Positions 4,476 through 47,333 are shown, counted from the first letter of the stretch. The stretch is 64,000 bases of DNA from Patescibacteria group bacterium (GCA_041650895.1 JBAZKF010000001.1:701181-765180); one strand, 5' to 3'. Notes: generated from the sequence alone by a model not told the origin. Numbers and translations are program-made.

Positions 4476-4547
4476 GCAGGTATCATATAACGGTTATTAT
4501 CCCAGTTTTCCAAACTGGTGACAGGAGTTCGACTCTCCTTACCTGCT
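4476..4547 (+). tRNA. tRNA-Gly (anticodon UCC)
   Basis: Acceptor GCAGGTA/TACCTGC, anticodon arm CCAGT-TTTCCAA-ACTGG, T-arm AGGAG-TTCGACT-CTCCT; 72 nt; followed by terminator AAAACCGCCCTTGGGGCGGTTTTTATT (4548-4581). Confidence 0.7.
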
Positions 4548-4913: not shown

Positions 4914-5870
4914 ATGACTGAAGAGGAAAAAATCCAATCCGCCCTGCCTCTTGACAATCAATCGGATAATCAGGGATCATCAGCTTTGCCGGTTGCCGAT
5001 GTTATTGTTTCAACGGAGGAAGCGGTCTTGCCGGAAGCTAAGGCGGAAGCCGAAGGAGCAGAAGAAGCGATTACTGAAGAGTCAAAAGGACTAACCGAAA
5101 CATTAGAGACAGAAGTATCTTCAGATGCGGAGAGTGGAGCGCCAATAATTGAAACCGAGAATCAGCCGGAATCGCCGGACAGCCCGGAAATGACAGAAGT
5201 GGTAATACCATCAGAACAGGTCAAGAAAGATGAAGAGCCTAAATCGGATCGGCCGCAACCGAAAACCATTATAGCTGCGGTGGTGGCCTTACTTATCGTT
5301 GTCGCAGTCGTTTGGTTGATTGTCAGTAGTATGAATCAGGATAAAACAGTTGACGGAGACGGAACGGTAAAAGTTTCTACAGCGCTGGAAAATGGCAAAG
5401 TTAGCATTATTGAAGAAGTGCCGGATGAAATCCAAGTCAATGTTACTAGCGATGATGTGCCGGTTTGGCCTAAGATAAAAATTATCGCCTATTACGGCAA
5501 CACGGTCAGCAATCCCAATTCCAATGATTGCTCCAAGGTGGAGCCGTTGGAAAGGGAGGTTGATGATAAGTTTGATTCCAATATTGTGAATACGGTTATC
5601 GGCTTATTACAGCCGTTGTCATCCACGGATAAGGCTGCTGGATATTATTCCGCTATCCCCTTGGGAACTCGCTTAAAGTATGTTAAGATTGATGATGATG
5701 GCACGCTGGAAGTGAATTTTGATTCCCAACTTGATAAGGCTGCCGGTTCTTGCGCTGTTACCGCTATTAGAGCGCAAATCACCAATACTTTGATGCAGTT
5801 CGCTCAAATCCAGTCAGTCAGGATCTGTATTGATAGTAATTGTCAGCAAGATCAGATCCTTCAGCCATAA
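4914..5870 (+). CDS. Membrane-anchored GerMN-domain protein with an acidic low-complexity N-terminal region
   Basis: TM segment AAVVALLIVVAVVWLIV; C-terminal block (YYGNT...TVIGLL...KYVKIDDDGTLEVNF...AIRAQITNTLMQF) typical of GerMN/Gmad2-like domains. Confidence 0.55.
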   Translation: MTEEEKIQSALPLDNQSDNQGSSALPVADVIVSTEEAVLPEAKAEAEGAEEAITEESKGLTETLETEVSSDAESGAPIIETENQPESPDSPEMTEVVIPSEQVKKDEEPKSDRPQPKTIIAAVVALLIVVAVVWLIVSSMNQDKTVDGDGTVKVSTALENGKVSIIEEVPDEIQVNVTSDDVPVWPKIKIIAYYGNTVSNPNSNDCSKVEPLEREVDDKFDSNIVNTVIGLLQPLSSTDKAAGYYSAIPLGTRLKYVKIDDDGTLEVNFDSQLDKAAGSCAVTAIRAQITNTLMQFAQIQSVRICIDSNCQQDQILQP

Positions 5871-6025
5871 TAGTAACTTGCTTTCGGCTCCCGCTATCTG
5901 TCGTGCCGGCGGGAGTCGTTTTTTGTTTGGCTTAAAACAGCAGATTATGTTATGATATATGAGTTAAGGGCTAATAAATTTATAAAGCCATAAGAATAAT
6001 TTGCAATTTAATTTATATTTTTTCT

Positions 6026-6919
6026 ATGCTTTGGTTGCCTATTACTATCCTTTCTTACGCCTTAAACGCTGCCGCTTTGGCAACGGATAAATTCTTACTT
6101 AATAAAAAGATTCCTAATCCAGCCGTTTATACTATTATTATTTGTTTTCTGGGTGTTTTGGCGTTAGTGCTTTTGCCGTTTAATTGGATGCCGCCGACTG
6201 GCTCGCAATTAGTTTGGGAGTTAATTTCCGGTTTTTTATTCGGCGCCGGAATTTATTTAATGTTTGTTGCTTTGAATAAGGGCGAGGCCTCGCGCATCAT
6301 TCCCTTTCTGGGCGGTTTGCAACCCTTAATCGTTTTACCCCTGGCCTGGTTGTTTGTCGGCGAGTCTGTTTCCGGCAAATTCTTGTTGGCTTTTATTATT
6401 ATTATTATCGGTACAGTATTAATCTCTTATGGCAAGGGCAAAGCCAACAAAACCGCTTATTACGCTGCTGTTTTTTCTGCCATACTTTTTGCCGTATCGT
6501 TGATTATTGCCAAGTATGCCTATAATTCCCAAGGCAGTTTCATTACGCCGTTTGTTATGACGCGCGTCGGTTCATTGATATTCGCTTTATGCTTGTTTGC
6601 CTGGCCGCGCAATCGCCGTGCTTTTTGGGCTGTGGTGCGTCATCCTCAAGGCCAGACTAGCGGGCTCTTGATTTTCGGGCAAGTTTCCGGCGCTTTAGCT
6701 TCAATTTTGATTAATTTTGCTATTGCCATTTCTGTCGGTGCGACCGCTATCATTAATGCTTTGCAGGGATTACAATATGCTTTCTTATTGCTTATCGTCA
6801 TAGTGGTGCAGAAAATTTGGCCCGGCGTTCTGAAAGAAAGAATGACCAGTAAAATCATGTGGCAGAAAATTATCGCCACGGCTTTTATTATTGCGGGCTT
6901 GGCTGTTTTAGCCCTATAA
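6026..6919 (+). CDS. EamA/DMT-family transporter
   Basis: ~10 predicted TM helices, two EamA-like repeats, 297 aa. Confidence 0.7.
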   Translation: MLWLPITILSYALNAAALATDKFLLNKKIPNPAVYTIIICFLGVLALVLLPFNWMPPTGSQLVWELISGFLFGAGIYLMFVALNKGEASRIIPFLGGLQPLIVLPLAWLFVGESVSGKFLLAFIIIIIGTVLISYGKGKANKTAYYAAVFSAILFAVSLIIAKYAYNSQGSFITPFVMTRVGSLIFALCLFAWPRNRRAFWAVVRHPQGQTSGLLIFGQVSGALASILINFAIAISVGATAIINALQGLQYAFLLLIVIVVQKIWPGVLKERMTSKIMWQKIIATAFIIAGLAVLAL

Positions 6920-6944
6920 AATAATTAGAAGTTTATTAAACATT

Positions 6945-7964
6945 ATGATATTTTTTTTCCGTCGCCATTGGTTTTTACTAATAGTTTTTCTGATTTTTTT
7001 GGCTTTAGTCAGCGCCATAGCCGGCAGTTACTTTTTTGATTTTTCCCGAACACGAATGGAATGGGGCGTCACTTTTTCTTCAGTCTATGCGCAAACCGAA
7101 CTGGGTTTGGATTGGCAAGCGGCTTATTTAGCCATTTTGGATGATTTGCAGGTTGATAACATTCGCTTGTCCGCTTATTGGAATCAGATTGAAGCAGTTA
7201 ACGGCCGTTATGATTTTAAGGATTTGGATTGGCAGATCAATGAAGCGTCTAAGCGCCAAGTGAAAATAGTTCTGGCAGTGGGCCGTCGTCTGCCGCGCTG
7301 GCCTGAATGTCACGACCCTGAGTGGCTCAAGGATTTAAAAGCGATTGACGCTGAGGAAGCCCAACTTAAATTTGTTCAAGCGGTAGTCAACAGATATAAG
7401 GATAATCAGCAGATTAAGTATTTCCAAGTGGAGAATGAGCCGTTTTTGTCCACTTTCGGCATCTGTCCACCGCCCAACAGGTTGTTGTTGAAAGAAGAAG
7501 TCGCTCAAGTAAAGAAGCTTACGGCCAAGCCGATTTTGGTCACTGACAGTGGTGAGCTATCAACTTGGTGGTCTATTTCCCATGTTGGAGGAGAGATTTT
7601 AGGTACAACCTTATATCGCGTGGTCTATAATCCGCAGGTCGGTTATTTTCGTTGGTTTACTCCCCCGGCGTTTTATTGGTTGCGCGTTCAACTGATAAAA
7701 ATATTGACGCCGATTCAAAAGGTCATTGTGGCGGAGTTGCAAGCAGAAAGCTGGCACAAGCCCAACATCAATTTGGCCCAGATGTCTTTGGCCGATCATA
7801 ATCTGTCATTAAGCCTGAATCAGCTGAAAGAAAATATTGCCTTTACTCGTCGTGCCGGTTTTGACGAAGCGTATTTATGGGGCGCGGAATGGTGGTATTA
7901 TATGAAAACAGGAAAGAACTATCCGGAATATTGGAATGAAGCAAAAAAACTTTGGGTCAAATAA
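6945..7964 (+). CDS. Glycoside hydrolase, TIM-barrel (GH5/cellulase-like), membrane-anchored
   Basis: N-terminal TM; catalytic-type motif FQVENEP (NEP acid/base); LAVGRRLPRWPE block. Confidence 0.6.
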   Translation: MIFFFRRHWFLLIVFLIFLALVSAIAGSYFFDFSRTRMEWGVTFSSVYAQTELGLDWQAAYLAILDDLQVDNIRLSAYWNQIEAVNGRYDFKDLDWQINEASKRQVKIVLAVGRRLPRWPECHDPEWLKDLKAIDAEEAQLKFVQAVVNRYKDNQQIKYFQVENEPFLSTFGICPPPNRLLLKEEVAQVKKLTAKPILVTDSGELSTWWSISHVGGEILGTTLYRVVYNPQVGYFRWFTPPAFYWLRVQLIKILTPIQKVIVAELQAESWHKPNINLAQMSLADHNLSLSLNQLKENIAFTRRAGFDEAYLWGAEWWYYMKTGKNYPEYWNEAKKLWVK

Positions 7965-7998
7965 TATTTTTTCAGTTATTAATTCGTAATAGATTATT

Positions 7999-9420
7999 AT
8001 GGGTTTAGCGGCAAAAATCGCTCAGAATACTTTTTGGCAAATCGTCGGCAAATTTGCCGGTACGGTTTTGGGTTTGATTACCATCGCCCTGATGACACGC
8101 TATCTGGGTCGTGAAGGATTCGGCTATTACACCACCATTATTTCTTTTTTGCAGTTTTTCGGCGTCTTGATTGATTTCGGCTTGCAGATGGCCACGGCGC
8201 AGATGCTGTCCCGTCCAGGAGTTAATCAGCATAAAATTTTTGCCAATATCCTGACGGTCCGTCTGCTTTCAGCCATAGTTTTCTTGGGTACGGCATCGGC
8301 TTTAGTTTGGTTTTTGCCCTACCCATTGGCCATTAAACTGGGTGTTGGCGTCGCTTCGTTTTCTTTTTTCTTTATTTCCTTGCAATCGGTTTTGATCGGT
8401 TTATATCAGAAGCAAATGGCTATGGCTGAAGTGGCAATCGCCGAAGTCTGGGGCAGATTCATTCTACTGCTGGGCGTTTGGCTGGCTGTTATGCTGGATT
8501 GGGGTCTTTTGGCTGTTATCGTCGCCGTGTCTTTGGGCAGTCTGGTGAATTTTCTATACTTAGTCATCGGGGCGCGCAAACATCTGATCTTAAAACTGGA
8601 AGTTGATTTTAAGGTTTGGCGGCAAATCTGGGATGTGTCTTGGCCGTTAGCCGTTACCATTTCTTTGACCTTGGTCTACTTTCGCGCTGATACGATTATT
8701 TTGTCTTTGGTTCGCCCGGCCGAGGAAGTCGGTATTTATGGTGCGGCCTACAAGGTGTTGGAGACACTGATTCAATTTCCTTATTTGTTTCTGGGTTTGA
8801 TTTTACCGCTTTTAACCGAGTTTTATTTGACCAGTAAAGTGTTATTTGAAAAGACTCTACAGAAATCTTTTGATTTTATGGCTATTTTAGCCGTACCTAT
8901 GGTTATGGCCACTTGGCTTTTGGCAGAGAAAATTATGGAGTTTGTGGCCGGCGCTGATTTTGTTATTGCCGCCGGGCCATTAAGGATTTTGATTGTGGGA
9001 GCAGCCATGATTTATTTCGGCGCTTTGGCCGGCTACGCTATTGTGGCTTGCGGCTTACAGAAAAAAATGATTTGGTTTTATCTTTTTGACGCTGTCTTTT
9101 CTTTAGCGGCTTATTTGATTTTTATTCCTATTTTTTCCTATTGGGCCGCGGCGATTCTTACTCTGGCGACAGAAACAGTTATTGCTCTGTCTGCTTTTTA
9201 TGTCTTGCGTCGGGAAACCAAGGCTAGGATTAATTTATGGGTTTTGGGTAAATCCCTCTTAGCTTCGTTAGTTATGGGTTTATGCCTTTATCCGCTGTTG
9301 AACCAAAATATTTTGACTTTAGTGATTATCGGCGCAGTTATTTATTTTCTCGCTCTTTATTTGCTTAGAGGTTATGACAAGCGCGAGGTAATGGATATGA
9401 TCAAATTAAAAAAAATATAA
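7999..9420 (+). CDS. Oligosaccharide flippase (Wzx/MOP superfamily) polysaccharide biosynthesis protein
   Basis: 473 aa, ~14 TM, N-terminal KFAGTVLGLITIALMTRYLG typical of PST/Wzx proteins. Confidence 0.7.
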   Translation: MGLAAKIAQNTFWQIVGKFAGTVLGLITIALMTRYLGREGFGYYTTIISFLQFFGVLIDFGLQMATAQMLSRPGVNQHKIFANILTVRLLSAIVFLGTASALVWFLPYPLAIKLGVGVASFSFFFISLQSVLIGLYQKQMAMAEVAIAEVWGRFILLLGVWLAVMLDWGLLAVIVAVSLGSLVNFLYLVIGARKHLILKLEVDFKVWRQIWDVSWPLAVTISLTLVYFRADTIILSLVRPAEEVGIYGAAYKVLETLIQFPYLFLGLILPLLTEFYLTSKVLFEKTLQKSFDFMAILAVPMVMATWLLAEKIMEFVAGADFVIAAGPLRILIVGAAMIYFGALAGYAIVACGLQKKMIWFYLFDAVFSLAAYLIFIPIFSYWAAAILTLATETVIALSAFYVLRRETKARINLWVLGKSLLASLVMGLCLYPLLNQNILTLVIIGAVIYFLALYLLRGYDKREVMDMIKLKKI

Positions 9421-31854: not shown

Positions 31855-33819
31855 ATGATCACTCTCACAAAGACGCATCTTAAAACTTCAGCCGCATTAG
31901 TTTTGGCGGCTACTTCCGTCGCCTTATCGGTTTTGGCGACAGTCAACATTGGATCAGAGCCAAGAATTGCAACAGCTTTGTCATCTGCTTCCTATTACAT
32001 CGGTTGCGATGCCTATAGTAATGACACTAATGACGGCACATCGCCAGTCACGGCTTGGAAAACTTTTTCTCGATTCAATCAGATGCAGGGGACAGTGGGA
32101 TTAAGGGCAGGCGACCAGATTTATTTGCAGCGCGGTTGTACTTTTAAAGAGACATTGCAGATCGCCGCTTCCGGTTCGATTGGATCATTGATCAGTGTTG
32201 ACGCTTATGGCTCGGGCAATAGTCCGATAATTGACGGCGAACAAGTCCGCCCTTGGAATGTTTTAATTTTGAACCAAAGCTATATTTCTTTGAAGAATAT
32301 CAGTGTTATCAACGCCCGATCGGAAAATTCTCCTTCGGCCGGCTTGGTCGTTTATAATTCTTCTAATGTGGTTGTTGATGGAGTTTCCGCTATGAATAAT
32401 TGGGGTTATGGCGGAATATATTTTCTGGCCGATGTGGCCGGAACTGGCAATGATAATGCCGTAAAAAATTCCATCGTCAACGGCACCAAGGGAACGGCTT
32501 ATTCCCAAGTCAATGCTTATAATTATGGCGCTGGCATAATGTTCTACGCCAACGGATCAGATCGCGGTTTGGGCAATGAAGTTTTCAATAATCAGGCCTA
32601 CAATAATGGCGCTATAGGCATTAGCTTTTCCGGTTCCAATGGCTCTATTAAGAATAATACCAGTTACAATAATGGTGACGCCGGCATTGCTCTTTATTCG
32701 GCAACTACGGCCGGCAATATTATTGAATATAATACGGTTTATGGTAACTGCCGCATTTTTGATGACCGCGCCGGCATTAATCTGTTTATGACCGGTGGCA
32801 ATAATATTGTCAGATATAATAAGGTTTACGGCCAGTATGATACTTATAATAATCCCGAAGGATTAGCTATAATTATCGATCAGGGTAACAGTGGGCAGAA
32901 GTTGGGCACTCAAGGAATTCGTTTTGATGGCAGTGTCAATGGAGTTGCCGGAACCAATGGCAATGCCGTGATTTATAACGTGATTTATAACGAGGGCGAT
33001 GGCATACAGCTTTATAATTTTGCTAATGTTGCGGTTTATAATAATACCGTGTATAACAGCAAACGTTTCGGTTTGGTTTTGGCTGGATCACTGATAACCG
33101 GAGCGCAAGTTAAGAATAATATTATCAGCACCATGGCGGACGGCAATACTTCCGGCAATTACAAAACTCTTTTGGGAATTGTCGGCGCTACCGGCAATAC
33201 CATTAATTATAATCTTTACTATCCCAGCGGTTCCTATACTAAACCGGCCGGACAGGATGTTAATTCTTTGATTGTTGATCCTAAATTTAATAACGCTATT
33301 GCTTATGATTTTTCTCTTCAAGCAATTTCTCCGGCAATCAATAAGGGTGCAGTATTGGGTCTGACCCCCGATTATATCGGTTTGGCTGTACCGCAAGGCA
33401 CGGTGCCGGATATGGGTGCTTATGAGTTCAGCGGCACGTTACCGCCGACTTGCATTGAGAATTGGTCTTGTGCTGATTGGAGTGCTTGTTCTAATGGCAC
33501 GCAAGCCAGAACTTGCGTTGATAGTAATAGTTGCGGCACTACGGCGAATATGCCGGCCCTCAGTCAAGCTTGCGTCTGTACCCCGACTACCTGCGCGGTT
33601 CAAGGCAAGAATTGCGGTTCCATTTCAAACGGCTGCGGTGGAACTTTGAATTGCGGTACCTGCAATGCGGCCCAGAATTGTACGAGTAATGTCTGCGTGG
33701 CCAAGACTTGCACTAATTCCGCTTGTTGCAAAGTTAAAAATCGTACTTATCCCTATTATAACTCCTCCAAGAGAAAGTGCTGTAAGTCATTTTTTAGCTC
33801 TTCCTGCATCGCCCCGTAA
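31855..33819 (+). CDS. Secreted right-handed parallel beta-helix (pectate-lyase-fold) protein with Cys-rich C-terminus
   Basis: Signal/TM anchor; many N-x-x-x-x-G-I/NNxxYNN beta-helix repeat rungs; 19 Cys in the last 130 aa. Confidence 0.65.
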   Translation: MITLTKTHLKTSAALVLAATSVALSVLATVNIGSEPRIATALSSASYYIGCDAYSNDTNDGTSPVTAWKTFSRFNQMQGTVGLRAGDQIYLQRGCTFKETLQIAASGSIGSLISVDAYGSGNSPIIDGEQVRPWNVLILNQSYISLKNISVINARSENSPSAGLVVYNSSNVVVDGVSAMNNWGYGGIYFLADVAGTGNDNAVKNSIVNGTKGTAYSQVNAYNYGAGIMFYANGSDRGLGNEVFNNQAYNNGAIGISFSGSNGSIKNNTSYNNGDAGIALYSATTAGNIIEYNTVYGNCRIFDDRAGINLFMTGGNNIVRYNKVYGQYDTYNNPEGLAIIIDQGNSGQKLGTQGIRFDGSVNGVAGTNGNAVIYNVIYNEGDGIQLYNFANVAVYNNTVYNSKRFGLVLAGSLITGAQVKNNIISTMADGNTSGNYKTLLGIVGATGNTINYNLYYPSGSYTKPAGQDVNSLIVDPKFNNAIAYDFSLQAISPAINKGAVLGLTPDYIGLAVPQGTVPDMGAYEFSGTLPPTCIENWSCADWSACSNGTQARTCVDSNSCGTTANMPALSQACVCTPTTCAVQGKNCGSISNGCGGTLNCGTCNAAQNCTSNVCVAKTCTNSACCKVKNRTYPYYNSSKRKCCKSFFSSSCIAP

Positions 33820-33912: not shown

Positions 33913-34374
33913 TTAGAAACTGTTTAAATATTCGGTTATCACCGGTTTAATATTGGGTGCGCAATCATCAGGCAGATGGTTGATGTCAAACCACTCCAGA
34001 GCCAAAATTTCTTTTCCGGCTTGCGGGGTGCCGGTGATTTCTGCCAAATAGTGGATTAAGACAATCGCCTGAGGCAGATCTGCGCCGGTTTCCGGAATCT
34101 CATTCCAAACGATTATTGGTTTAAGCGGTTTGATCAGCTTAACTTCCGTTCCAATTTCTTCTCGGGCTTCCCGAATAGCATTCTCCTCCAGTGATGACCC
34201 GACCATGACTTTGCCGCCGCAAAACTTCCATTTAAGTTCGGAGATCGGCTTGTCGCCATGTTTGGTTAATAAAGTTTTTAGGATGCCGTCGCGCTGTTGG
34301 ATAATGACCGGACCGGAGGCAATCAGGGTGGTAAAAATCCCAATTTCTCCCGGTTTGGTAGTGTTAATGCCCAT
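33913..34374 (-). CDS. NUDIX hydrolase
   Basis: Nudix box GGKVMVGSSLEENAIREAREEIG. Confidence 0.85.
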   Translation of the reverse strand: MGINTTKPGEIGIFTTLIASGPVIIQQRDGILKTLLTKHGDKPISELKWKFCGGKVMVGSSLEENAIREAREEIGTEVKLIKPLKPIIVWNEIPETGADLPQAIVLIHYLAEITGTPQAGKEILALEWFDINHLPDDCAPNIKPVITEYLNSF

Positions 34375-34378
34375 ATTG

Positions 34379-35953
34379 TTAAAAGTATTTAAGCATATAG
34401 GTTCCTTCTAAATTATAACCTAATTTTTTGTAATATTCACGTACGCCGACTCCGGCGATAATGGCGATTTTTTGATAACCTTGTCGTCGGGCTAGTTTTT
34501 CCGCTTCAGCTAGAAGTTTTTTACCCAGTCCCAGATGCTGGACCTTGCCCTCGCCCCCCAACTCTAAGGCTTGGCCGTAAGTGTGCAACTCGCGGATTAG
34601 AGAGGCGTTTTTTAATTCCGGCAAAACGGGTTGTTCCGATTTGTTCGGCAGTCGCAGACGCAAGAAAGCGTAGAGAATTTTTTCATCCGGCGACTCAAAA
34701 CTCAAGAAGTACTCCGTACCCCCGTTGGCCTGATATTGTATTGTTCGCAATTTATAATTGGTAATTCGTAATTGTTTTTGGTGCCCAACTTCCCGACATC
34801 TGATGCATTTGCAAGACCAGCCGTCCTTAGCCGCTTGTTCGTTGATTAGTTGGCGTAAGTTGGTGATTTTATTGCCGGCAATAATGGATGTTTCGGGAAT
34901 ATCGCGGATAAGGCGAGTAATACGCACCCAGGGTGGCGTGATTCTTTTGATTTTTATCAGTAATTCAAGCAAATGTTTGGGGGTATAGGGTTTATGTTTG
35001 CCTTGTTTGTATAATTTATGCAAGTCGGCGTGTTCATTAACAACGCAAGGATAGATTTTTATCATATCCGGCAGGTAATTGCCGTCAGTATAAATTTTTT
35101 TAAACATAGCCATGTCCTTCGCCGGCGTAGAGCCGTACATGTTGGGCATCAAATGCAGATTGATTTTAAAGCCGGAATTTTTGAGCAATTTGATCGCTTC
35201 AATACTTTGTTTGGCCGTATGTCCGCGACGGTTTAACTTCAAGATTCCATCATCAGTATGCTGGACGCCCAATTCTACCCGAGTACAGCCTAATTCGCGC
35301 AAGCGTATAATCTCTTTGGGTGTGATATAATCCGGCCGGGTCTCCAGCGTTAGGCCGACACAGCGATGCTTGGCAGTCTCATTTTTGTTTTGCGCATCTT
35401 GCAGAGTTTTTGCCGGTTTGCCATTAAGCGCTTCCAAACAGCGTTTAATGAACCATTTTTGATACCGGGTAGAGTGATATGACCAGGTACCTCCCATGAC
35501 GATAAGCTCTATTTTTTCCGTCTTATGGCCATTAGCTTCAAGCGCCTTAAGCCGCATCTCTACTTGGCGGTAAGGATCAAAGTCATTGAGGACCGCGCGC
35601 ATCACCGCCGGCTCATTGCTCAGATATGATTTGGGCATGTTTTTTTCCGTCGGACAGAACAAACAATTGCCCGGGCAGGGCTGGGGTTTAGTCAAAACGG
35701 AGACAACTGCCACGCCGGAAAGCGTTCGTACAGCGCGTTTGGTCAGCAGACGCTCCAGATTCTTGTTCGGCTTGATTCTTTTTGTCTTGATTAATCGGCG
35801 GTACTGGGCAAGCAGAGCTGATTTTTCCGGAGGCGGGAGTTTCTGTTTTCCTGAAATTGAGCGGACAATATTAAATAATTCCTTATCTGAAACAGGATTG
35901 CTTTCGGCAATTTTTAAGATGATGTCGGCTAGTTGTTTTTGCTTGCCTTTCAT
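34379..35953 (-). CDS. elp3: Elp3-family radical SAM/GNAT tRNA uridine(34) carboxymethyl-modification enzyme
   Basis: CPGNCLFCP radical SAM cluster, ELIVMGGTWS, LTLETRPDYI, C-terminal GNAT with QHLGLGKKLL; 524 aa. Confidence 0.85.
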   Translation of the reverse strand: MKGKQKQLADIILKIAESNPVSDKELFNIVRSISGKQKLPPPEKSALLAQYRRLIKTKRIKPNKNLERLLTKRAVRTLSGVAVVSVLTKPQPCPGNCLFCPTEKNMPKSYLSNEPAVMRAVLNDFDPYRQVEMRLKALEANGHKTEKIELIVMGGTWSYHSTRYQKWFIKRCLEALNGKPAKTLQDAQNKNETAKHRCVGLTLETRPDYITPKEIIRLRELGCTRVELGVQHTDDGILKLNRRGHTAKQSIEAIKLLKNSGFKINLHLMPNMYGSTPAKDMAMFKKIYTDGNYLPDMIKIYPCVVNEHADLHKLYKQGKHKPYTPKHLLELLIKIKRITPPWVRITRLIRDIPETSIIAGNKITNLRQLINEQAAKDGWSCKCIRCREVGHQKQLRITNYKLRTIQYQANGGTEYFLSFESPDEKILYAFLRLRLPNKSEQPVLPELKNASLIRELHTYGQALELGGEGKVQHLGLGKKLLAEAEKLARRQGYQKIAIIAGVGVREYYKKLGYNLEGTYMLKYF

Positions 35954-36196
35954 CTGGAAATGATAGCATCAATTCGCTTAATTTTCAATTATTGTATTTT
36001 ATTTTTGTTTAAATTTGGCTAATAATGTAGTTTACACATCTAAAAAGAAAGCTAAACATGTTGACAAATAATCGTTTATGCGGTATAATTATATATTAGT
36101 ATTTGCCCTGTCGGCAAAGCTGATTCGCACCTAAAAATCGGTTAGCCGGCGGCTCTGGCATGGGGCTGGAGCAAGGGGCCGACCAAGGAGAACGCA

Positions 36197-36949
36197 ATGA
36201 GTAAGCGGAAGAACGTAGAATCTGTAGTGTCGGCAATGGGTGCTTTACTGTCCATTGTCACTAACTTGGTCTCTTATATTCGTGATTTTGGCGGCGATGT
36301 CGGCGAATGCATTTATCGGTTATCTTTGCCGGAGGGCAGGGAAACGCTTAAGACCATAGCCAACTTGGCTGCAAACAACGCCTTGCTGGCGAAGGGGATT
36401 TACCGAGTGTTGGTTGATTATTCCTTGACGCTTCCCGAGATGATTGCCGCAGGAAAATATGATAAGTCGGGGACGATTCCTGATTATCAAATTAAAGGAT
36501 TTGGCCGGCAACTGGTGGACATTGAGCTGTGGCGTCTCATTGAGAGTTGTCATGATGATAAGGAGGCGTTGGCTGAACTCCATAAAATGAAACCCGGCTA
36601 TCGTTTTGCCACCTTGCCCGAGTTGTTGGCCCTGGGCGCGGCATACCCTAATCTCCAATTACTTTTTATGATTTTATCTTTGGGGTCAGTTTGGCCGTGG
36701 TCTGGCGACAAGCATCATTTGGAATGTGCCTGTCTTAATGGTTGGTCAACAAGTGGGAGGCGTTTTTTGGGTCGTTGCTTGGTTGGTCTTACCGATAGGC
36801 CCCAACAAGGTCATTTGCCCTTTGAAGGTAATTGTCTATTCGCGATTGTCAAAGAAATCGGCCAGCAAGCGAACGTAGCCGCGAATGTAGTTGAATTTAA
36901 ATCGTCCAGCCCATCAACATCGCCCGATTGGTTTGAACGGACCGCTTAA
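36197..36949 (+). CDS. GC-elevated hypothetical protein, member of a CHD/W..D-motif paralog family (see findings)
   Basis: Promoter TTGACA-17-TATAAT 36059-36087, RBS AAGGAGAACG, terminator 36970-37006; motif SCHDD...H...YRFATLPE. Confidence 0.6.
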   Translation: MSKRKNVESVVSAMGALLSIVTNLVSYIRDFGGDVGECIYRLSLPEGRETLKTIANLAANNALLAKGIYRVLVDYSLTLPEMIAAGKYDKSGTIPDYQIKGFGRQLVDIELWRLIESCHDDKEALAELHKMKPGYRFATLPELLALGAAYPNLQLLFMILSLGSVWPWSGDKHHLECACLNGWSTSGRRFLGRCLVGLTDRPQQGHLPFEGNCLFAIVKEIGQQANVAANVVEFKSSSPSTSPDWFERTA

Positions 36950-37041
36950 AGCAGAACTTTTAATTTTATGCCCGCACGGCTTTCTGTTGTGCGGGTTTTC
37001 TTTTTGGCAAAAAGCTTAAAAAATGTTAAAGTTAGCTTATT

Positions 37042-37926
37042 ATGAACAGACAAAAAATAAGAAGAGTCCTTGATCAAACCAAGGATATTTATAATCGAAT
37101 CGCGCCTGATTTTTCAGATACGAGAAGTCATTGGTGGAAGGGTTTCGGCGATTTTGCCAAATATGTCAGACCGGGCGATCGGGTTCTGGATTTAGGTTGT
37201 GGCAATGGCCGGATGGCGGAGATTTTTACTGATTCAAAAGTGAGATATTTAGGTATAGATAATAGCGAGGAGTTGATAAAAATCGCTCAGGAAAGATTCA
37301 AAGATAAGCCATGGGTGAAATTTGAGGTCGGAGATATAACGGCTTTTGTCATTCCGAGCGAAGTTGAGAAATCTTTTGGAAATGAAAGCGATTCCTCCGC
37401 TCCGCTTCGCTCCGGTCGGAATGACAAGGAAGATAAACGCTCCGGTCGGAATGACAAGGAAGATAAACGCTCTAGTGGCAATGACAATACGAAGAATGGT
37501 TTTGATTTGGTTTTATTAGTTGCTGTTTTGCATCATTTGCCGACCAAAAAGCTACGGCTTAAAGTTTTAGAAAATATCCACCAGGCGTTAAAACCGGGCG
37601 GCAGATTGGTGATGGTCAATTGGAATTTGTGGCAGATTTTCGGCTGGAAAAAGAAATTCCGCTATTGGCCTTACCTTTTTAATTGGCCGGAAAAAATCAA
37701 GTGTGGCGTTTGGGGCGTGTCCGACGCTTTCGTACCCTGGAAGCCGGCAGGAAAAGAAACTAGGCGTTATATTCATTCTTTCACTAAGGGAGAAACGCGA
37801 CGATTGCTGAGGCGAGCCGGCTTTGCTATTGAGGAATTGGAATTCAAAGCCAAAGGCGATAATAAAAAAGGCATAATGTATGGCGATAATCTTTTGTCCA
37901 TTGCCGTTAAAAATGGTAAAATGTAA
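37042..37926 (+). CDS. Trm9/ALKBH8-like class I SAM-dependent methyltransferase (putative tRNA mcm5U methyltransferase) with repeat-encoded loop insertion
   Basis: IYNRIAPDFSDTRSHWW + VLDLGCGNGR (motif I) + C-terminal RRYIHSFTKGETRRLL resemble Trm9; internal 30-bp x2 tandem repeat. Confidence 0.55.
   Translation: MNRQKIRRVLDQTKDIYNRIAPDFSDTRSHWWKGFGDFAKYVRPGDRVLDLGCGNGRMAEIFTDSKVRYLGIDNSEELIKIAQERFKDKPWVKFEVGDITAFVIPSEVEKSFGNESDSSAPLRSGRNDKEDKRSGRNDKEDKRSSGNDNTKNGFDLVLLVAVLHHLPTKKLRLKVLENIHQALKPGGRLVMVNWNLWQIFGWKKKFRYWPYLFNWPEKIKCGVWGVSDAFVPWKPAGKETRRYIHSFTKGETRRLLRRAGFAIEELEFKAKGDNKKGIMYGDNLLSIAVKNGKM
37411..37470 (+). repeat. Perfect 30-bp x2 tandem repeat inside the methyltransferase CDS
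   Basis: tccggtcggaatgacaaggaagataaacgc twice, encoding SGRNDKEDKR x2; flanked by 16-bp inverted repeat arms (37348-37363 and 37405-37425). Confidence 0.9.
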
Positions 37927-37928
37927 TC

Positions 37929-39293
37929 ATGAATATACCTGCTAAAATTTTCAAGGAGTATGATATCCGTGGCAAGTACCCGCAAGAATTAAATGAACAG
38001 ACGGCATTTGTTTTGGGCTTAGCATTTGCCAAAGTAACTAAAGCCAAAAAAGCTGTAGTTGGCCGTGATGCCCGATTAGAATCAGAAAAAATTTTTTGGC
38101 CGTTACTGTCCGGTTTAAGCCAAGGAGGAGTTAAAGTGCATGATTTGGGAGTTTGCGCCACGCCTGAATTGTTTTTTGCTGTGGGTGAACATGGTTTCCC
38201 CGCCGGCGCCATGATTACCGCCAGCCACAGTCCGGCCGGAGAAACCGGAGTGAAGTTTTGCGACGGTCGGGGTCGGGTTTTTGGGCTAAAGACTGGACTG
38301 AAGAAAATAGAGGCTTTGACGGAAAAAGTCCAACCGCAGAAGGTTAATAAACCGCAAGCTTCCTTTGCCTCCGTAACTAAAGAATACCGGGATTTTGTTT
38401 TGTCTCTGATTAATCCTCAGGAGTTAAGAGGTCTGAAGGTAATTCTGGATGCTTCCGGCGGTTCGGGGGCGCGTTTGGCTGAAACGGTTTTTTCTTTTTT
38501 GCCGGTAAAAACGACGCGGATGAATTTTTTCTCCGGCGATCCCTACCCTGATCATGGACTTAACCCCTTACTTAAAGAGAATCAGTCATCCATTATTAAA
38601 GAAATCAAGGCTGAGAAAGCCGATTTGGGGGTGATTTTTGACGGTGACGCGGATCGGGCGATATTTATTGATGAGCGGGGAAAGTTTGTTGAACCATATT
38701 ATTTGAATTGCTTATTGGCGGAAATAATCTTGGATTACAAACCGAAAATAGAAATTATTATTGATGCCCGCCTGGGCCTGGGCCTGTCTGAATTGATTCG
38801 CGCTAAAGGCGGACGAGTTATGCTCCATCGCGCCGGTTACGCCAATATTATCAAAACCATGAATCGGAAGAAACTTCTTTTCGGTTGCGAGAATTCCGGC
38901 CATTTTATGTTTAATTATCGTCTGTTTGGCCGTAGGAAGAATTATGTCTGGGGCGATGCAATTTTGCCGGTTTTACTTATTTTGTCGTATCTTAAAGATA
39001 ATAAACTGACTTTATCGCGGGCTATTAATGATTATTCTACCAAGTATGCAATTTCCGGCGAGAAGAATTATAAACTAAAGGATTTTAATCGGTTGGCTAA
39101 AAAACTTAAGCGGGAGTTCAAAGGAGCGGAATTTTCCACGTTAGACGGTTTATCGGTTAAGGATAAAGGAGATCGATGGTATTTGAACCTTCGACCGTCG
39201 CATACGGAGCCGTTGGTGCGTTTGAATGTAGAAGCTAGAAATAAAGATATTCTGGCTGAAATATTGATAAAAACAGAAAAATTAATTAAATAA
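37929..39293 (+). CDS. Phosphomannomutase/phosphoglucomutase (alpha-D-phosphohexomutase)
   Basis: Active-site loop TASHSPAGE, FDGDADR metal-binding loop, 454 aa. Confidence 0.8.
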   Translation: MNIPAKIFKEYDIRGKYPQELNEQTAFVLGLAFAKVTKAKKAVVGRDARLESEKIFWPLLSGLSQGGVKVHDLGVCATPELFFAVGEHGFPAGAMITASHSPAGETGVKFCDGRGRVFGLKTGLKKIEALTEKVQPQKVNKPQASFASVTKEYRDFVLSLINPQELRGLKVILDASGGSGARLAETVFSFLPVKTTRMNFFSGDPYPDHGLNPLLKENQSSIIKEIKAEKADLGVIFDGDADRAIFIDERGKFVEPYYLNCLLAEIILDYKPKIEIIIDARLGLGLSELIRAKGGRVMLHRAGYANIIKTMNRKKLLFGCENSGHFMFNYRLFGRRKNYVWGDAILPVLLILSYLKDNKLTLSRAINDYSTKYAISGEKNYKLKDFNRLAKKLKREFKGAEFSTLDGLSVKDKGDRWYLNLRPSHTEPLVRLNVEARNKDILAEILIKTEKLIK

Positions 39294-41035: not shown

Positions 41036-42412
41036 ATGAATAAGCGGTTGTTGCTGGGTGTTGCCTTGTGTGTCGCTTCATTTATCTTAATCACTGGTTG
41101 CGATGATCGTCCGCCGGAATTTACCCTTCAGCCGCTTCCCCGCATTGTTAACCCGGGAAGCGAAGTGCAATTTATTTGTGATGCTGATCGGGCTTGGAGC
41201 TGGCAGTGGCAAAAAAACGGAGAGAATATCGTTAATGCCAATTCCAATATCTACATTATTCCTTCGGCGGTTATTGACGATGAGGGAAATTATGTTTGCG
41301 TCGTTGGTAATCCTCATGGGCAAATATTTTCTGTTATCGCCACATTGAAAGTCAATCGACCCCTAATCATAGTGGCTGAGCCTCAGGATATTGAAATTGA
41401 AGCGGGGCAAATGTTTGTTTTGAGGGTTCTAGTGATTGGCACTCAACCTTGGCGTTTTCAGTGGTATCAAGACGGCAGTTTATTACCTTGGGCCAACCTT
41501 AGCGATCTGACCGTATCGGCTGCTGACGCCAATCATGCCGGTAGTTATTTTTGCGTAGTTAATAATATCACTAATCAACCAGTCGTTTCGCGGATCGTCG
41601 CTGTAAAGATTATCGCTCAGGAAGGCGAAGGTGAAGGCGAAGGTGAAGGCGAAGGTGAAGGTGAAGGCGAAGGCGAAGGTGAAGGCGAAGGCGAAGGTGA
41701 AGGCGAAGATTTTTGCCTTAATACTAATGAAGGTGATGATCCCAGCGACCCCCTGCCGGAACCGCTTAGCAGTTTTTGTGCTTGCTATCAGAAAGTTTAC
41801 GAAGCGCCACGGGCGATATTGGGTGACTATGGAAGTATTTTGGACTTGTTTGAACCAAATACTGCCGATGTCAATGGTAGCCTCTGGATTGACCAAAGAA
41901 CTGACCCGGTAACCTATGATGCGACTGGCAATAACTACCTTGATTGCGTAATAGAACTCAAATTAGTGGAAATAGTGCTGAAGGATTCGGAATTTTGCTT
42001 GCCTAATGGTTTGAACCATAAGTTATTGCATTACGCTTGGAATTACAATGAAGAACGATTCGCCACTGACTTCGGTACTTATTGGCAATTAGCGTCATTA
42101 ATTTTTCCCGGCCTGGAAGAGGTTTTGGCCGGCCATATGCTGATAGGCGACGGCCAAGCTGATTATTCGGTGGAAAAGTATATTTCCGGTACCGGGTCAA
42201 TCGGTATGGTTTTGGGGATGGCTTTCATTTTTGGCGATAAAATACCGAATTGTCGGCTTAACTTGTCCCAGTATATGACTTTTCCTGAGTATTTTGCCCC
42301 TAGTGGCGACGCCGATGGCGACGGCTATACCAATAGTGAGGAATTTGCGACTTACGGGACTGTTCCCGATCTTTACGTGGCCAACGCCCTTGATCCGGAA
42401 ATTCATCCGTAG
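41036..42412 (+). CDS. Lipoprotein with two Ig-like (I-set-like) domains, (Gly-Glu)n linker and C-terminal domain
   Basis: Lipobox LITGC; GNYVCVVGNPHG and GSYFCVVNN Ig strand-F signatures; EGEGEGEG x~14 encoded by a GAAGGC/GAAGGT microsatellite. Confidence 0.6.
   Translation: MNKRLLLGVALCVASFILITGCDDRPPEFTLQPLPRIVNPGSEVQFICDADRAWSWQWQKNGENIVNANSNIYIIPSAVIDDEGNYVCVVGNPHGQIFSVIATLKVNRPLIIVAEPQDIEIEAGQMFVLRVLVIGTQPWRFQWYQDGSLLPWANLSDLTVSAADANHAGSYFCVVNNITNQPVVSRIVAVKIIAQEGEGEGEGEGEGEGEGEGEGEGEGEGEGEDFCLNTNEGDDPSDPLPEPLSSFCACYQKVYEAPRAILGDYGSILDLFEPNTADVNGSLWIDQRTDPVTYDATGNNYLDCVIELKLVEIVLKDSEFCLPNGLNHKLLHYAWNYNEERFATDFGTYWQLASLIFPGLEEVLAGHMLIGDGQADYSVEKYISGTGSIGMVLGMAFIFGDKIPNCRLNLSQYMTFPEYFAPSGDADGDGYTNSEEFATYGTVPDLYVANALDPEIHP
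41621..41709 (+). repeat. Coding microsatellite (GAAGGY)n encoding (Glu-Gly)n linker
   Basis: ~15 tandem hexamers gaaggc/gaaggt inside the Ig-like lipoprotein gene. Confidence 0.9.
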
Positions 42413-47006: not shown

Positions 47007-47333
47007 ATGGCATTTATTAAAAAAATTGAGGATTTTAAGTGTGGGTATTGCGGGACTGAGGTTAAGGGGTCAGGCTATACCAATCATTGCCCCAAATGTT
47101 TATGGTCTAAACATGTGGATATTGAGCCGGGTGATCGCCAAGCGGAATGCGGCGGTTTGATGCGGCCGGTCGATCTGTATTATCATAGCGGCAGATGGAT
47201 TATCTCTCAGCGTTGCGAATCTTGCGGTTTCATCCGCAAGGACAAGATCAGGGAAGAAGATGATACAAATGAAGTGATCCGGTTAGAGAAAGAGCTGGCT
47301 GAGAAAAAACTCCGCCAAATCAGACAAATATAG
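47007..47333 (+). CDS. RNHCP-domain zinc-ribbon protein
   Basis: CGYCG...TNHCPKCLWSKHVD...CGG...CESCG. Confidence 0.65.
   Translation: MAFIKKIEDFKCGYCGTEVKGSGYTNHCPKCLWSKHVDIEPGDRQAECGGLMRPVDLYYHSGRWIISQRCESCGFIRKDKIREEDDTNEVIRLEKELAEKKLRQIRQI

Follow-up and report, generated by a model that had tools for sequence, protein, structure and literature searches.

A divergent gene pair in Patescibacteria encoding Elp3 and a predicted Trm9-like tRNA methyltransferase

Introduction

Might some bacteria modify wobble uridine in the manner of archaea and eukaryotes? The question is raised by a 64,000-nucleotide stretch of DNA (hereafter, the window) from an ultrasmall Patescibacteria group bacterium (GCA_041650895.1, JBAZKF010000001.1:701181-765180). 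Here, a gene for Elp3 and a gene for a methyltransferase resembling Trm9 are divergently oriented. An earlier note, made from the sequence alone, proposed that such a pair would imply a pathway generating 5-methoxycarbonylmethyluridine (mcm5U) at the tRNA wobble position, U34. Modification of this base at C5 is near universal and the textbook view is of two routes: MnmE and MnmG in bacteria, and Elp3 or Elongator, together with Trm9, in archaea and eukaryotes.

In reviews, Elp3 is called 'rare' among bacteria, or limited to one clade, Dehalococcoides (PMC6367351, PMC7663514), and it is noted that no bacterium has been shown to contain an xcm5U derivative (PMC7663514, PMC6367351). According to a 2026 paper, 'numerous bacteria' have Elp3 (PMC13315578). 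Our own full-text literature search returned no paper linking Elp3, Trm9 or Elongator with Patescibacteria, or Candidate Phyla Radiation (CPR), bacteria; one match, in Nature from 2023, concerned Thorarchaeia. We think it likely that the locus encodes a stand-alone, two-step module of the archaeal and eukaryotic type for making xcm5U34. Elp3 would produce 5-carboxymethyluridine (cm5U) at position 34 and the methyltransferase would then convert this to mcm5U34.

Results

The locus encodes a full-length Elp3 homolog

The window has a G+C content of ~43%, and the genomes closest to it are those of Patescibacteria/CPR. All three proteins encoded at the locus are identical to NCBI entries MFA5124898.1 to MFA5124900.1, from a 'Patescibacteria group bacterium' metagenome-assembled genome (MAG), on a contig of 957,791 bp. 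As the earlier note had described, the open reading frames (ORFs) for Elp3 and the methyltransferase are divergent, with a third ORF, in the plus orientation, between them (Table 1). The motifs and terminal strings quoted for the two proteins are also all present at the places given for them.

Comparison of Elp3 with model TIGR01211 gave an E-value of 6.2e-172 and 572.7 bits, where the cutoff is 350; residues 53-523 align with positions 38-521 of the 522 in the model. Pfam domains Radical_SAM (4.6e-19), Radical_SAM_C and Acetyltransf_1 (score 21.9, cutoff 20.7) were also recognised. Among proteins of known structure in the PDB, the Elp3 sequence aligns end to end with crystallised Elp3 from Methanocaldococcus infernus (MinElp3, 1.6e-138) and Dehalococcoides mccartyi (DmcElp3, 5.9e-126). 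The key motifs fall in register. Cysteines of the Fe-S cluster (C93-x3-C97-x2-C100, where CPGNCLFC is residues 93-100) align with PCPGKCIYCP of DmcElp3 and CPHGKCIFCP of MinElp3. Similarly, the zinc-type cysteines C381-K-C383-I-R-C386 align with CRCIRC of both proteins; such a cluster has been described in the inter-domain linker of bacterial and archaeal Elp3 (PMC6367351). The acetyl-CoA motif QHLGLG, at residues 472-477, aligns with QHMGYG or QHRGLG of the solved Elp3 structures.

The N-terminus is basic, with 20 K/R and 6 D/E in the first 80 amino acids. Note that the alignment to DmcElp3 begins only at residue 72. Therefore, the window Elp3 has an additional N-terminal extension of ~70 amino acids, in the manner of archaeal proteins. 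This region of Elp3 is reported to be important in tRNA recognition (PMC6367351), and the shorter DmcElp3 to bind tRNA weakly (PMC6367351; PMC7663514). NCBI names the identical protein MFA5124898.1, and other Patescibacteria proteins, Elp3. The claim of a full-length Elp3 homolog, with radical S-adenosylmethionine (SAM) and GNAT domains, is borne out by the TIGR01211 score, the motifs and the structural alignments. Judged from its sequence, we regard membership of the Elp3 family as secure.

The divergent gene encodes a Trm9-like methyltransferase

We then considered the identity of the methyltransferase, which NCBI annotates only as a 'class I SAM-dependent methyltransferase'. A Pfam scan returned generic class I families (Methyltransf_11, 12, 23, 25 and 31). 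Since neither Pfam nor NCBIfam returned a model specific to Trm9, these library scans are uninformative for or against Trm9. All NCBIfam scores were below cutoff: CpaM (56.3, cutoff 180), UbiG (40.7, cutoff 102.95), UbiE (36.2, cutoff 216), CmoA (24.8, cutoff 193.3) and also ArsM. The small-molecule matches cover mostly the SAM-binding, N-terminal, half of the protein.

Relatedness to Trm9 was judged against PDB structures and fungal Trm9 sequences. With the single sequence, a search of the PDB placed 3sm3, an uncharacterised archaeal methyltransferase (9.1e-10), next to Trm9 of structure 5cm2 (1.1e-9). This near tie was settled by a family profile. Briefly, the family comprises 616 proteins at E<=1e-5; among the 120 matches listed, those with names are from Patescibacteria groups (Buchananbacteria, Falkowbacteria and Portnoybacteria), and a few carry a TRM9 or ALKBH8 label in JGI annotation. 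When a profile of 37 diverse homologs was compared with the PDB, Yarrowia lipolytica Trm9 (5cm2_Z) ranked first, with 4.2e-28 and 101.6 bits. The next match scored 75.7, giving a margin of 26 bits, and the alignment to Trm9 spans almost the whole chain. An AlphaFold2 (AF2) model of the methyltransferase has a Rossmann-type strand order and a mean predicted confidence (pLDDT) of 84.5. In a Foldseek search of the PDB with this model, 5cm2_Z was again ranked first (E 1.0e-13, target-normalised TM-score, TMt, 0.81).

A hidden Markov model (HMM) built from 119 fungal Trm9 sequences was used to search 2,942 ORFs, of at least 80 amino acids, from the window and 80 further loci described below. Exactly 81 ORFs matched, namely the methyltransferase of each locus, with scores of 58-117 bits (72.5 for the window). 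No other ORF among the 2,942 was matched at E<=10. The same HMM gave 25.7 and 33.8 bits with fragments of the next-best generic methyltransferases from the PDB.

Residues needed by Trm9 were also examined. Létoquart et al. found that alanine substitution of R29, D72, H116, W145, W168, R241, Y243 or N271 in yeast Trm9 abolishes, or strongly reduces, function (PMC4678810). In a joint alignment, all but Y243 are matched by identical residues of the window protein: R28, D73, H165, W194, W233, R242 and N283, respectively. Each is invariant or near invariant in the family. Yeast H115 and Y18 are also kept, as H164 and Y17. The N-terminal helix motif YxxIAxxFSxTR (IYNRIAPDFSDTR, residues 16-28) aligns with VYNQIASHFSNTR of Yarrowia Trm9, and Y17, A21, F24 and R28 are invariant. 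So too are motif I, VLDLGCGNG, and the acidic SAM-binding residue, D73. In sum, the conserved blocks of the family are YxxIAxxFSxTR, D.GCGNG, AV.HH (AVLHH), W..L.Q, D..VPW, RY.H.F..GE and DN. On the alignment, we take these blocks to be Trm9 signatures outside the general SAM-binding motifs.

The family has features of its own. An insertion of ~20 residues follows the W..L.Q motif, and the loop between beta3 and beta4 is variable. In the window, this loop (residues ~101-150, pLDDT ~50 in the AF2 model) is disordered and contains RSGRNDKEDK repeats. These are encoded by a 30-bp tandem repeat, with 2.7 copies, a Tandem Repeats Finder (TRF) score of 132 and 92% matches. At the same site, homologs have unrelated insertions of 0-50 amino acids.

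Together, the family profile, Foldseek ranking, fungal HMM, shared residues and sub-cutoff NCBIfam scores uphold the second part of the earlier proposal: they support a Trm9-like protein, as predicted, rather than a generic small-molecule enzyme. Separately, we considered a CmoM-like role, in methylation of cmo5U. Nothing favoured this: the conserved pairing is with Elp3, and the best PDB matches included no structure of CmoM type.

The gene pair is conserved across Patescibacteria

If the two proteins act together, their genes might be expected to remain together. We collected 80 loci, from 80 species-representative genomes, selected by the methyltransferase alone. Elp3 was then sought by tblastn with the window protein. 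Elp3 was found directly upstream, and on the opposite strand, at 73 of the 80 loci; the pair was divergent in every one. The extrapolated start-to-start gap had a median of ~42 bp, and was no more than 300 bp in 55 of the 73. At three of the seven remaining loci (L039, L056 and L065) there is practically no upstream DNA, leaving ~4 real exceptions (L029, L052, L054 and L061) and ~77 informative species. Pairing persists down to 29% identity for the methyltransferase and 40% for Elp3.

The reverse test gave the same result. All four loci selected by Elp3 alone (57-60% identity, contigs of 48-886 kb) carry the methyltransferase, on the opposite strand, with a start 2-7 bp from that of Elp3. These proteins have 238-243 amino acids and score 71-96 bits with the fungal Trm9 HMM. 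Hence, in the conservation check that the earlier note had suggested, pairing is evident in both directions. Such conservation would be very hard to account for if Elp3 and the methyltransferase were not functionally linked. An Elp3 and Trm9 gene cluster has precedent, in Sulfolobus (PMC6144793). Note that many MAG records with such a locus (L004, L005, L009 and others) have 'uncultured Gammaproteobacteria bacterium' or 'uncultured Candidatus Saccharibacteria bacterium' as their title. The loci are clearly of Patescibacteria type, and the titles have the look of placeholders or taxonomic errors.

A predicted two-step pathway, and its alternatives

Gene identities, residue conservation and synteny were computed here, and the chemistry that follows is drawn from characterised homologs. 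By virtue of its family, Elp3 would bind tRNA via the basic N-terminus and cleave SAM at its [4Fe-4S] cluster, generating a 5'-deoxyadenosyl radical. The acetyl group of GNAT-bound acetyl-CoA would then be transferred to C5 of U34, making cm5U. Conserved active-site residues, and the gene pairing, suggest that the Trm9-like enzyme would use SAM to methyl-esterify the carboxyl group, yielding mcm5U34. If there is an MnmA-type thiolase elsewhere in the genome, mcm5s2U could result in the Lys, Glu and Gln tRNAs. The window also contains a gene for tRNA-Gly, with anticodon UCC, at 4476-4547 (+). This is a candidate substrate; in yeast, tRNA-Gly(UCC) is a U34 tRNA that bears mcm5U.

Several observations weigh against this pathway. 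Curated libraries (Pfam and NCBIfam) place the methyltransferase in generic families only. The Foldseek margin among class I methyltransferases was small, with 1.0e-13 for Trm9 and 1.8e-13 for the next structure. Yeast Y243 is replaced by I244 in the window protein and, across the family, the position is V, I, F or Y, but mostly V, I or F. The yeast Y243A mutant keeps ~10% of activity. In addition, eukaryotic and archaeal Trm9 require Trm112. An HMM of bacterial Trm112-like proteins (E<0.3) detected no such ORF among 19,883 from the window and the 80 loci, which represent ~1.3 Mb of flanks and not whole genomes. Searches by regular expression, and by Pfam on small zinc-ribbon ORFs of the window, also found no Trm112; these ORFs are members of other families. 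One zinc-ribbon ORF, at 47007-47333 (+), was considered for this role but is from the RNHCP family (PF12647, 6.5e-29).

The change of this tyrosine, and the lack of Trm112 nearby in the window and the 80 loci, would fit a scenario where both enzymes act on U34 and something other than mcm5U is made. For example, the methyltransferase might modify another atom or position, act on a different Elp3 intermediate, or have altered or weakened activity. The insertion after W..L.Q, and the variable beta3-beta4 loop, point the same way. So does the very weak activity of DmcElp3, the only bacterial Elp3 tested, and the want of any demonstrated bacterial xcm5U (PMC7663514). Conversely, the residues proposed to contact the carboxylate, or uracil ring, of cm5U (R29, H115/H116, R241, N271, W145 and Y18 in yeast) are all conserved. 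On this basis we argue for the same substrate geometry, and we consider a different product unlikely.

Alternatively, the methyltransferase could belong to class I but be unrelated to Trm9. Its substrate would then be a small molecule, protein or rRNA, and it would merely share the Elp3 neighbourhood or promoter region. Elp3 alone would then make cm5U, or a non-methylated derivative. Such an enzyme would explain the generic domains and NCBI label, the weak matches to UbiE, UbiG, CpaM and ArsM, and the narrow lead of 3sm3 in the single-sequence search. It would not explain why Trm9 leads the family profile by 26 bits, why motifs specific to Trm9, away from the SAM-binding site, do not vary, or why the fungal HMM is specific to this one gene. 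Furthermore, all small-molecule NCBIfam models fall far under cutoff (the UbiG score, for example, is less than half that needed), and the tight divergent pairing is kept across ~77 informative species, down to 29% identity. We therefore regard an unrelated enzyme as quite improbable. Finally, Elp3 has a C-terminal GNAT fold, was historically called a histone acetyltransferase, and keeps this name in PDB entries, but a protein lysine acetyltransferase, or other non-tRNA, role underlying the pairing is very hard to credit given a partner homologous to tRNA methyltransferases and a basic N-terminus of the tRNA-binding type.

We also looked for the competing route. Motif scans found no signature of MnmE, MnmG or MnmA in the 64-kb window; this is a part of the 957,791-bp contig, and the result applies to the window alone. 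For the Saccharibacterium Southlakia epibionticum, a complete gene table has a KEGG Orthology (KO) entry for MnmA and none for MnmE, MnmG, Elp3 or Trm9 (PMC10633639 supplements). Hence, at least one Patescibacterium is without MnmE and MnmG. This is only a hint, since that organism, from another lineage, is also without the gene pair.

Organisation of the locus

Features of the locus are listed in Table 1. The usual arrangement provides Elp3 and the methyltransferase with a very short, shared, divergent control region. In the window, and its closest relatives, this is split by an unrelated inserted gene. Because the insertion sits between them, Elp3 and the methyltransferase are 1,088 bp apart in the window.

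Table 1. Coordinates of features at the Elp3 and methyltransferase locus, numbered from the first base of the window.
Feature	Position	Strand	Basis
Elp3 (radical-SAM + GNAT/KAT, predicted tRNA U34 carboxymethylating), 524 aa	34379..35953	-	TIGR01211, Pfam, PDB alignments
Trm9-like class I SAM methyltransferase, 294 aa, predicted cm5U34 to mcm5U34	37042..37926	+	Family profile, Foldseek, fungal Trm9 HMM
30-bp tandem repeat inside methyltransferase gene	37408..37487	+	TRF
Intergenic region 5' of Elp3 and inserted gene, promoter-like sites on both strands	35954..36196	.	Consensus matches
Inserted gene, 250 aa, NCBI hypothetical protein WC473_03730	36197..36949	+	ORF; no Pfam match
Terminator-like hairpin after inserted gene	36970..36996	+	11-bp stem, 7 G-C pairs, T-rich tail
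Promoter-like sites for methyltransferase, 3' of hairpin	37004-37043	+	Consensus matches
NUDIX hydrolase gene, start 4 bp past Elp3 stop	33913..34374	-	Pfam NUDIX 3.2e-16
Phosphomanno/phosphoglucomutase gene, start 2 bp past methyltransferase stop	37929..39293	+	Pfam PGM_PMM I-IV

The region between Elp3 and the inserted gene has promoter-like sequences, identified as consensus matches only. In the plus orientation, TTGACA-17-TATAAT (12/12 consensus) is at 36061-36089. On the minus strand are TTGAAA-17-TATCAT, at 35988-35960, and TTGCCG-18-TATAAT, at 36117-36088. The terminator-like hairpin closes the transcription unit of the inserted gene, and further promoter-like sites follow, just upstream of the methyltransferase start. 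The inserted gene thus has the marks of a unit independent of its neighbours.

Among the 73 pairs, two have the inserted gene at this position, those of L001 and L002, the closest relatives of the window; the other 71 are without it. Homologs are confined to these two genomes, with three in L001 (640-1434, 8102-8875 and 9109-9903) and two in L002 (2072-2833 and 9086-9859), and some of them also separate Elp3 from the methyltransferase. They form a small, lineage-specific paralog family that, in these relatives, seems to accumulate beside Elp3. It has conserved blocks (MIAAGKYD, ELLALGA and LGS[IV]W) and no known domain. The earlier note had placed the gene in a 'CHD-motif paralog family', and this did not hold. 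The window shows no further copy by tblastn or by an HMM of true homologs, and the homolog alignment is not conserved where the CHD triplet falls. Two other CHD-containing ORFs of the window were rejected as paralogs; they encode a glycosyl-hydrolase-like protein and an unassigned protein. We read the inserted gene as a lineage-specific insertion, separate from the pathway.

The flanking genes are probable co-transcribed neighbours. A NUDIX homolog is downstream of Elp3 at ~17 of the 80 loci; its substrate can only be guessed at (CoA, acetyl-CoA or a nucleotide by-product). A phosphomanno/phosphoglucomutase homolog is downstream of the methyltransferase at ~30 of the 80, and this adjacency is most likely plain synteny. 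In an arrangement not found in the window, genes for serine hydroxymethyltransferase (SHMT) and FolD, of one-carbon/folate metabolism, follow Elp3 at the four Elp3-selected loci, L083-L086 (~5600-8750 in each). Two further genes of the window were noted. The first, at 41036-42412 (+), specifies a protein of 458 residues that is predicted to be secreted; segments at its N-terminus are repeated (by eye, possibly Ig-like), and it has a long Gly-Glu run (EGEGEG...). The second, at 31855-33819 (+), encodes a protein of 654 residues with a right-handed beta-helix (Pfam Beta_helix, NosD-like) and a C-terminal tail rich in cysteine; this is probably a surface protein.

Discussion

Our data provide good support for a pathway that is already known, in a lineage for which it is seemingly undescribed; Elp3 was already named by NCBI and the methyltransferase only generically. 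Patescibacteria with the gene pair probably make an 'archaeal/eukaryotic' tRNA modification, as far as can be told from their genes. Possible variant features are Trm112 independence, the change of tyrosine to isoleucine in the active site, and the tight, divergent, operon-like arrangement. More broadly, and tentatively, Elp3 and a Trm112-independent Trm9 might have replaced MnmE and MnmG across much of Patescibacteria/CPR. If so, no bacteria before these would have been shown to make mcm5U or mcm5s2U. The module would then be a trace of genes exchanged long ago between archaea and CPR bacteria, or of their common ancestry. We would, at present, lean slightly against this wider scenario.

From the tight conservation of the pair in dozens of Patescibacteria species comes a testable prediction, that a major bacterial radiation has tRNA of the mcm5U type. 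For biochemistry, the locus offers a compact Elp3 whose N-terminus, of the tRNA-binding type, is complete, and a possibly Trm112-independent Trm9. We can also offer a functional name for a widespread 'class I SAM-dependent methyltransferase'. The findings are relevant to decoding accuracy in episymbionts with reduced genomes, and to gene flow between CPR bacteria and archaea.

How does the predicted module compare with known systems? The MnmE/MnmG pathway, which generates cmnm5U or nm5U, has the same target, C5 of U34, and a similar role in decoding (PMC7663514). However, the enzymes and chemistry are unrelated; a GTPase and an FAD enzyme use methylene-tetrahydrofolate (methylene-THF) with glycine or ammonium. 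The methyltransferase is best compared with yeast Trm9 and the methyltransferase domain of ALKBH8, that is, tRNA (carboxymethyluridine(34)-5-O)-methyltransferase. Shared are the class I fold, the signature motifs, seven of eight essential yeast residues and, for Trm9, a connection to Elp3, the maker of its substrate, which in Patescibacteria is a genomic partnership. Unlike ALKBH8, the window protein has no AlkB or RRM domain. It is ~21% identical to Y. lipolytica Trm9 and differs by the insertion after W..L.Q, the variable beta3-beta4 loop, and I, V or F at the Y243 position in the family. The Trm9 of Haloferax volcanii, an archaeal example, binds Trm112 in a complex, whereas no such partner was found near the Patescibacteria gene and none is known for the lineage.

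For Elp3, the nearest comparisons are stand-alone proteins of archaea (M. infernus and M. jannaschii) and DmcElp3. All have the two-domain layout of radical SAM and KAT/GNAT, the Fe-S triad, the CxCxxC zinc-type cysteines and the QHxGxG motif, and all occur outside the context of Elp1, 2, 4, 5 or 6. The window protein resembles MinElp3 in its basic N-terminal extension of ~70 amino acids, the tRNA-binding-type region that DmcElp3 is without. Its host belongs to the Patescibacteria, rather than archaea or Dehalococcoidia, and, in most genomes, its gene has a Trm9-like gene as its divergent neighbour. The closest parallel for the pair is the cluster of Sulfolobus solfataricus, where prokaryotic Elp3 and a Trm9 ortholog are likewise physically together, and the archaeal pathway works without other Elongator subunits. 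In contrast to that cluster, the Patescibacteria genes are divergent, often tens of base pairs apart, in a bacterial host, and their arrangement is kept across a very large radiation.

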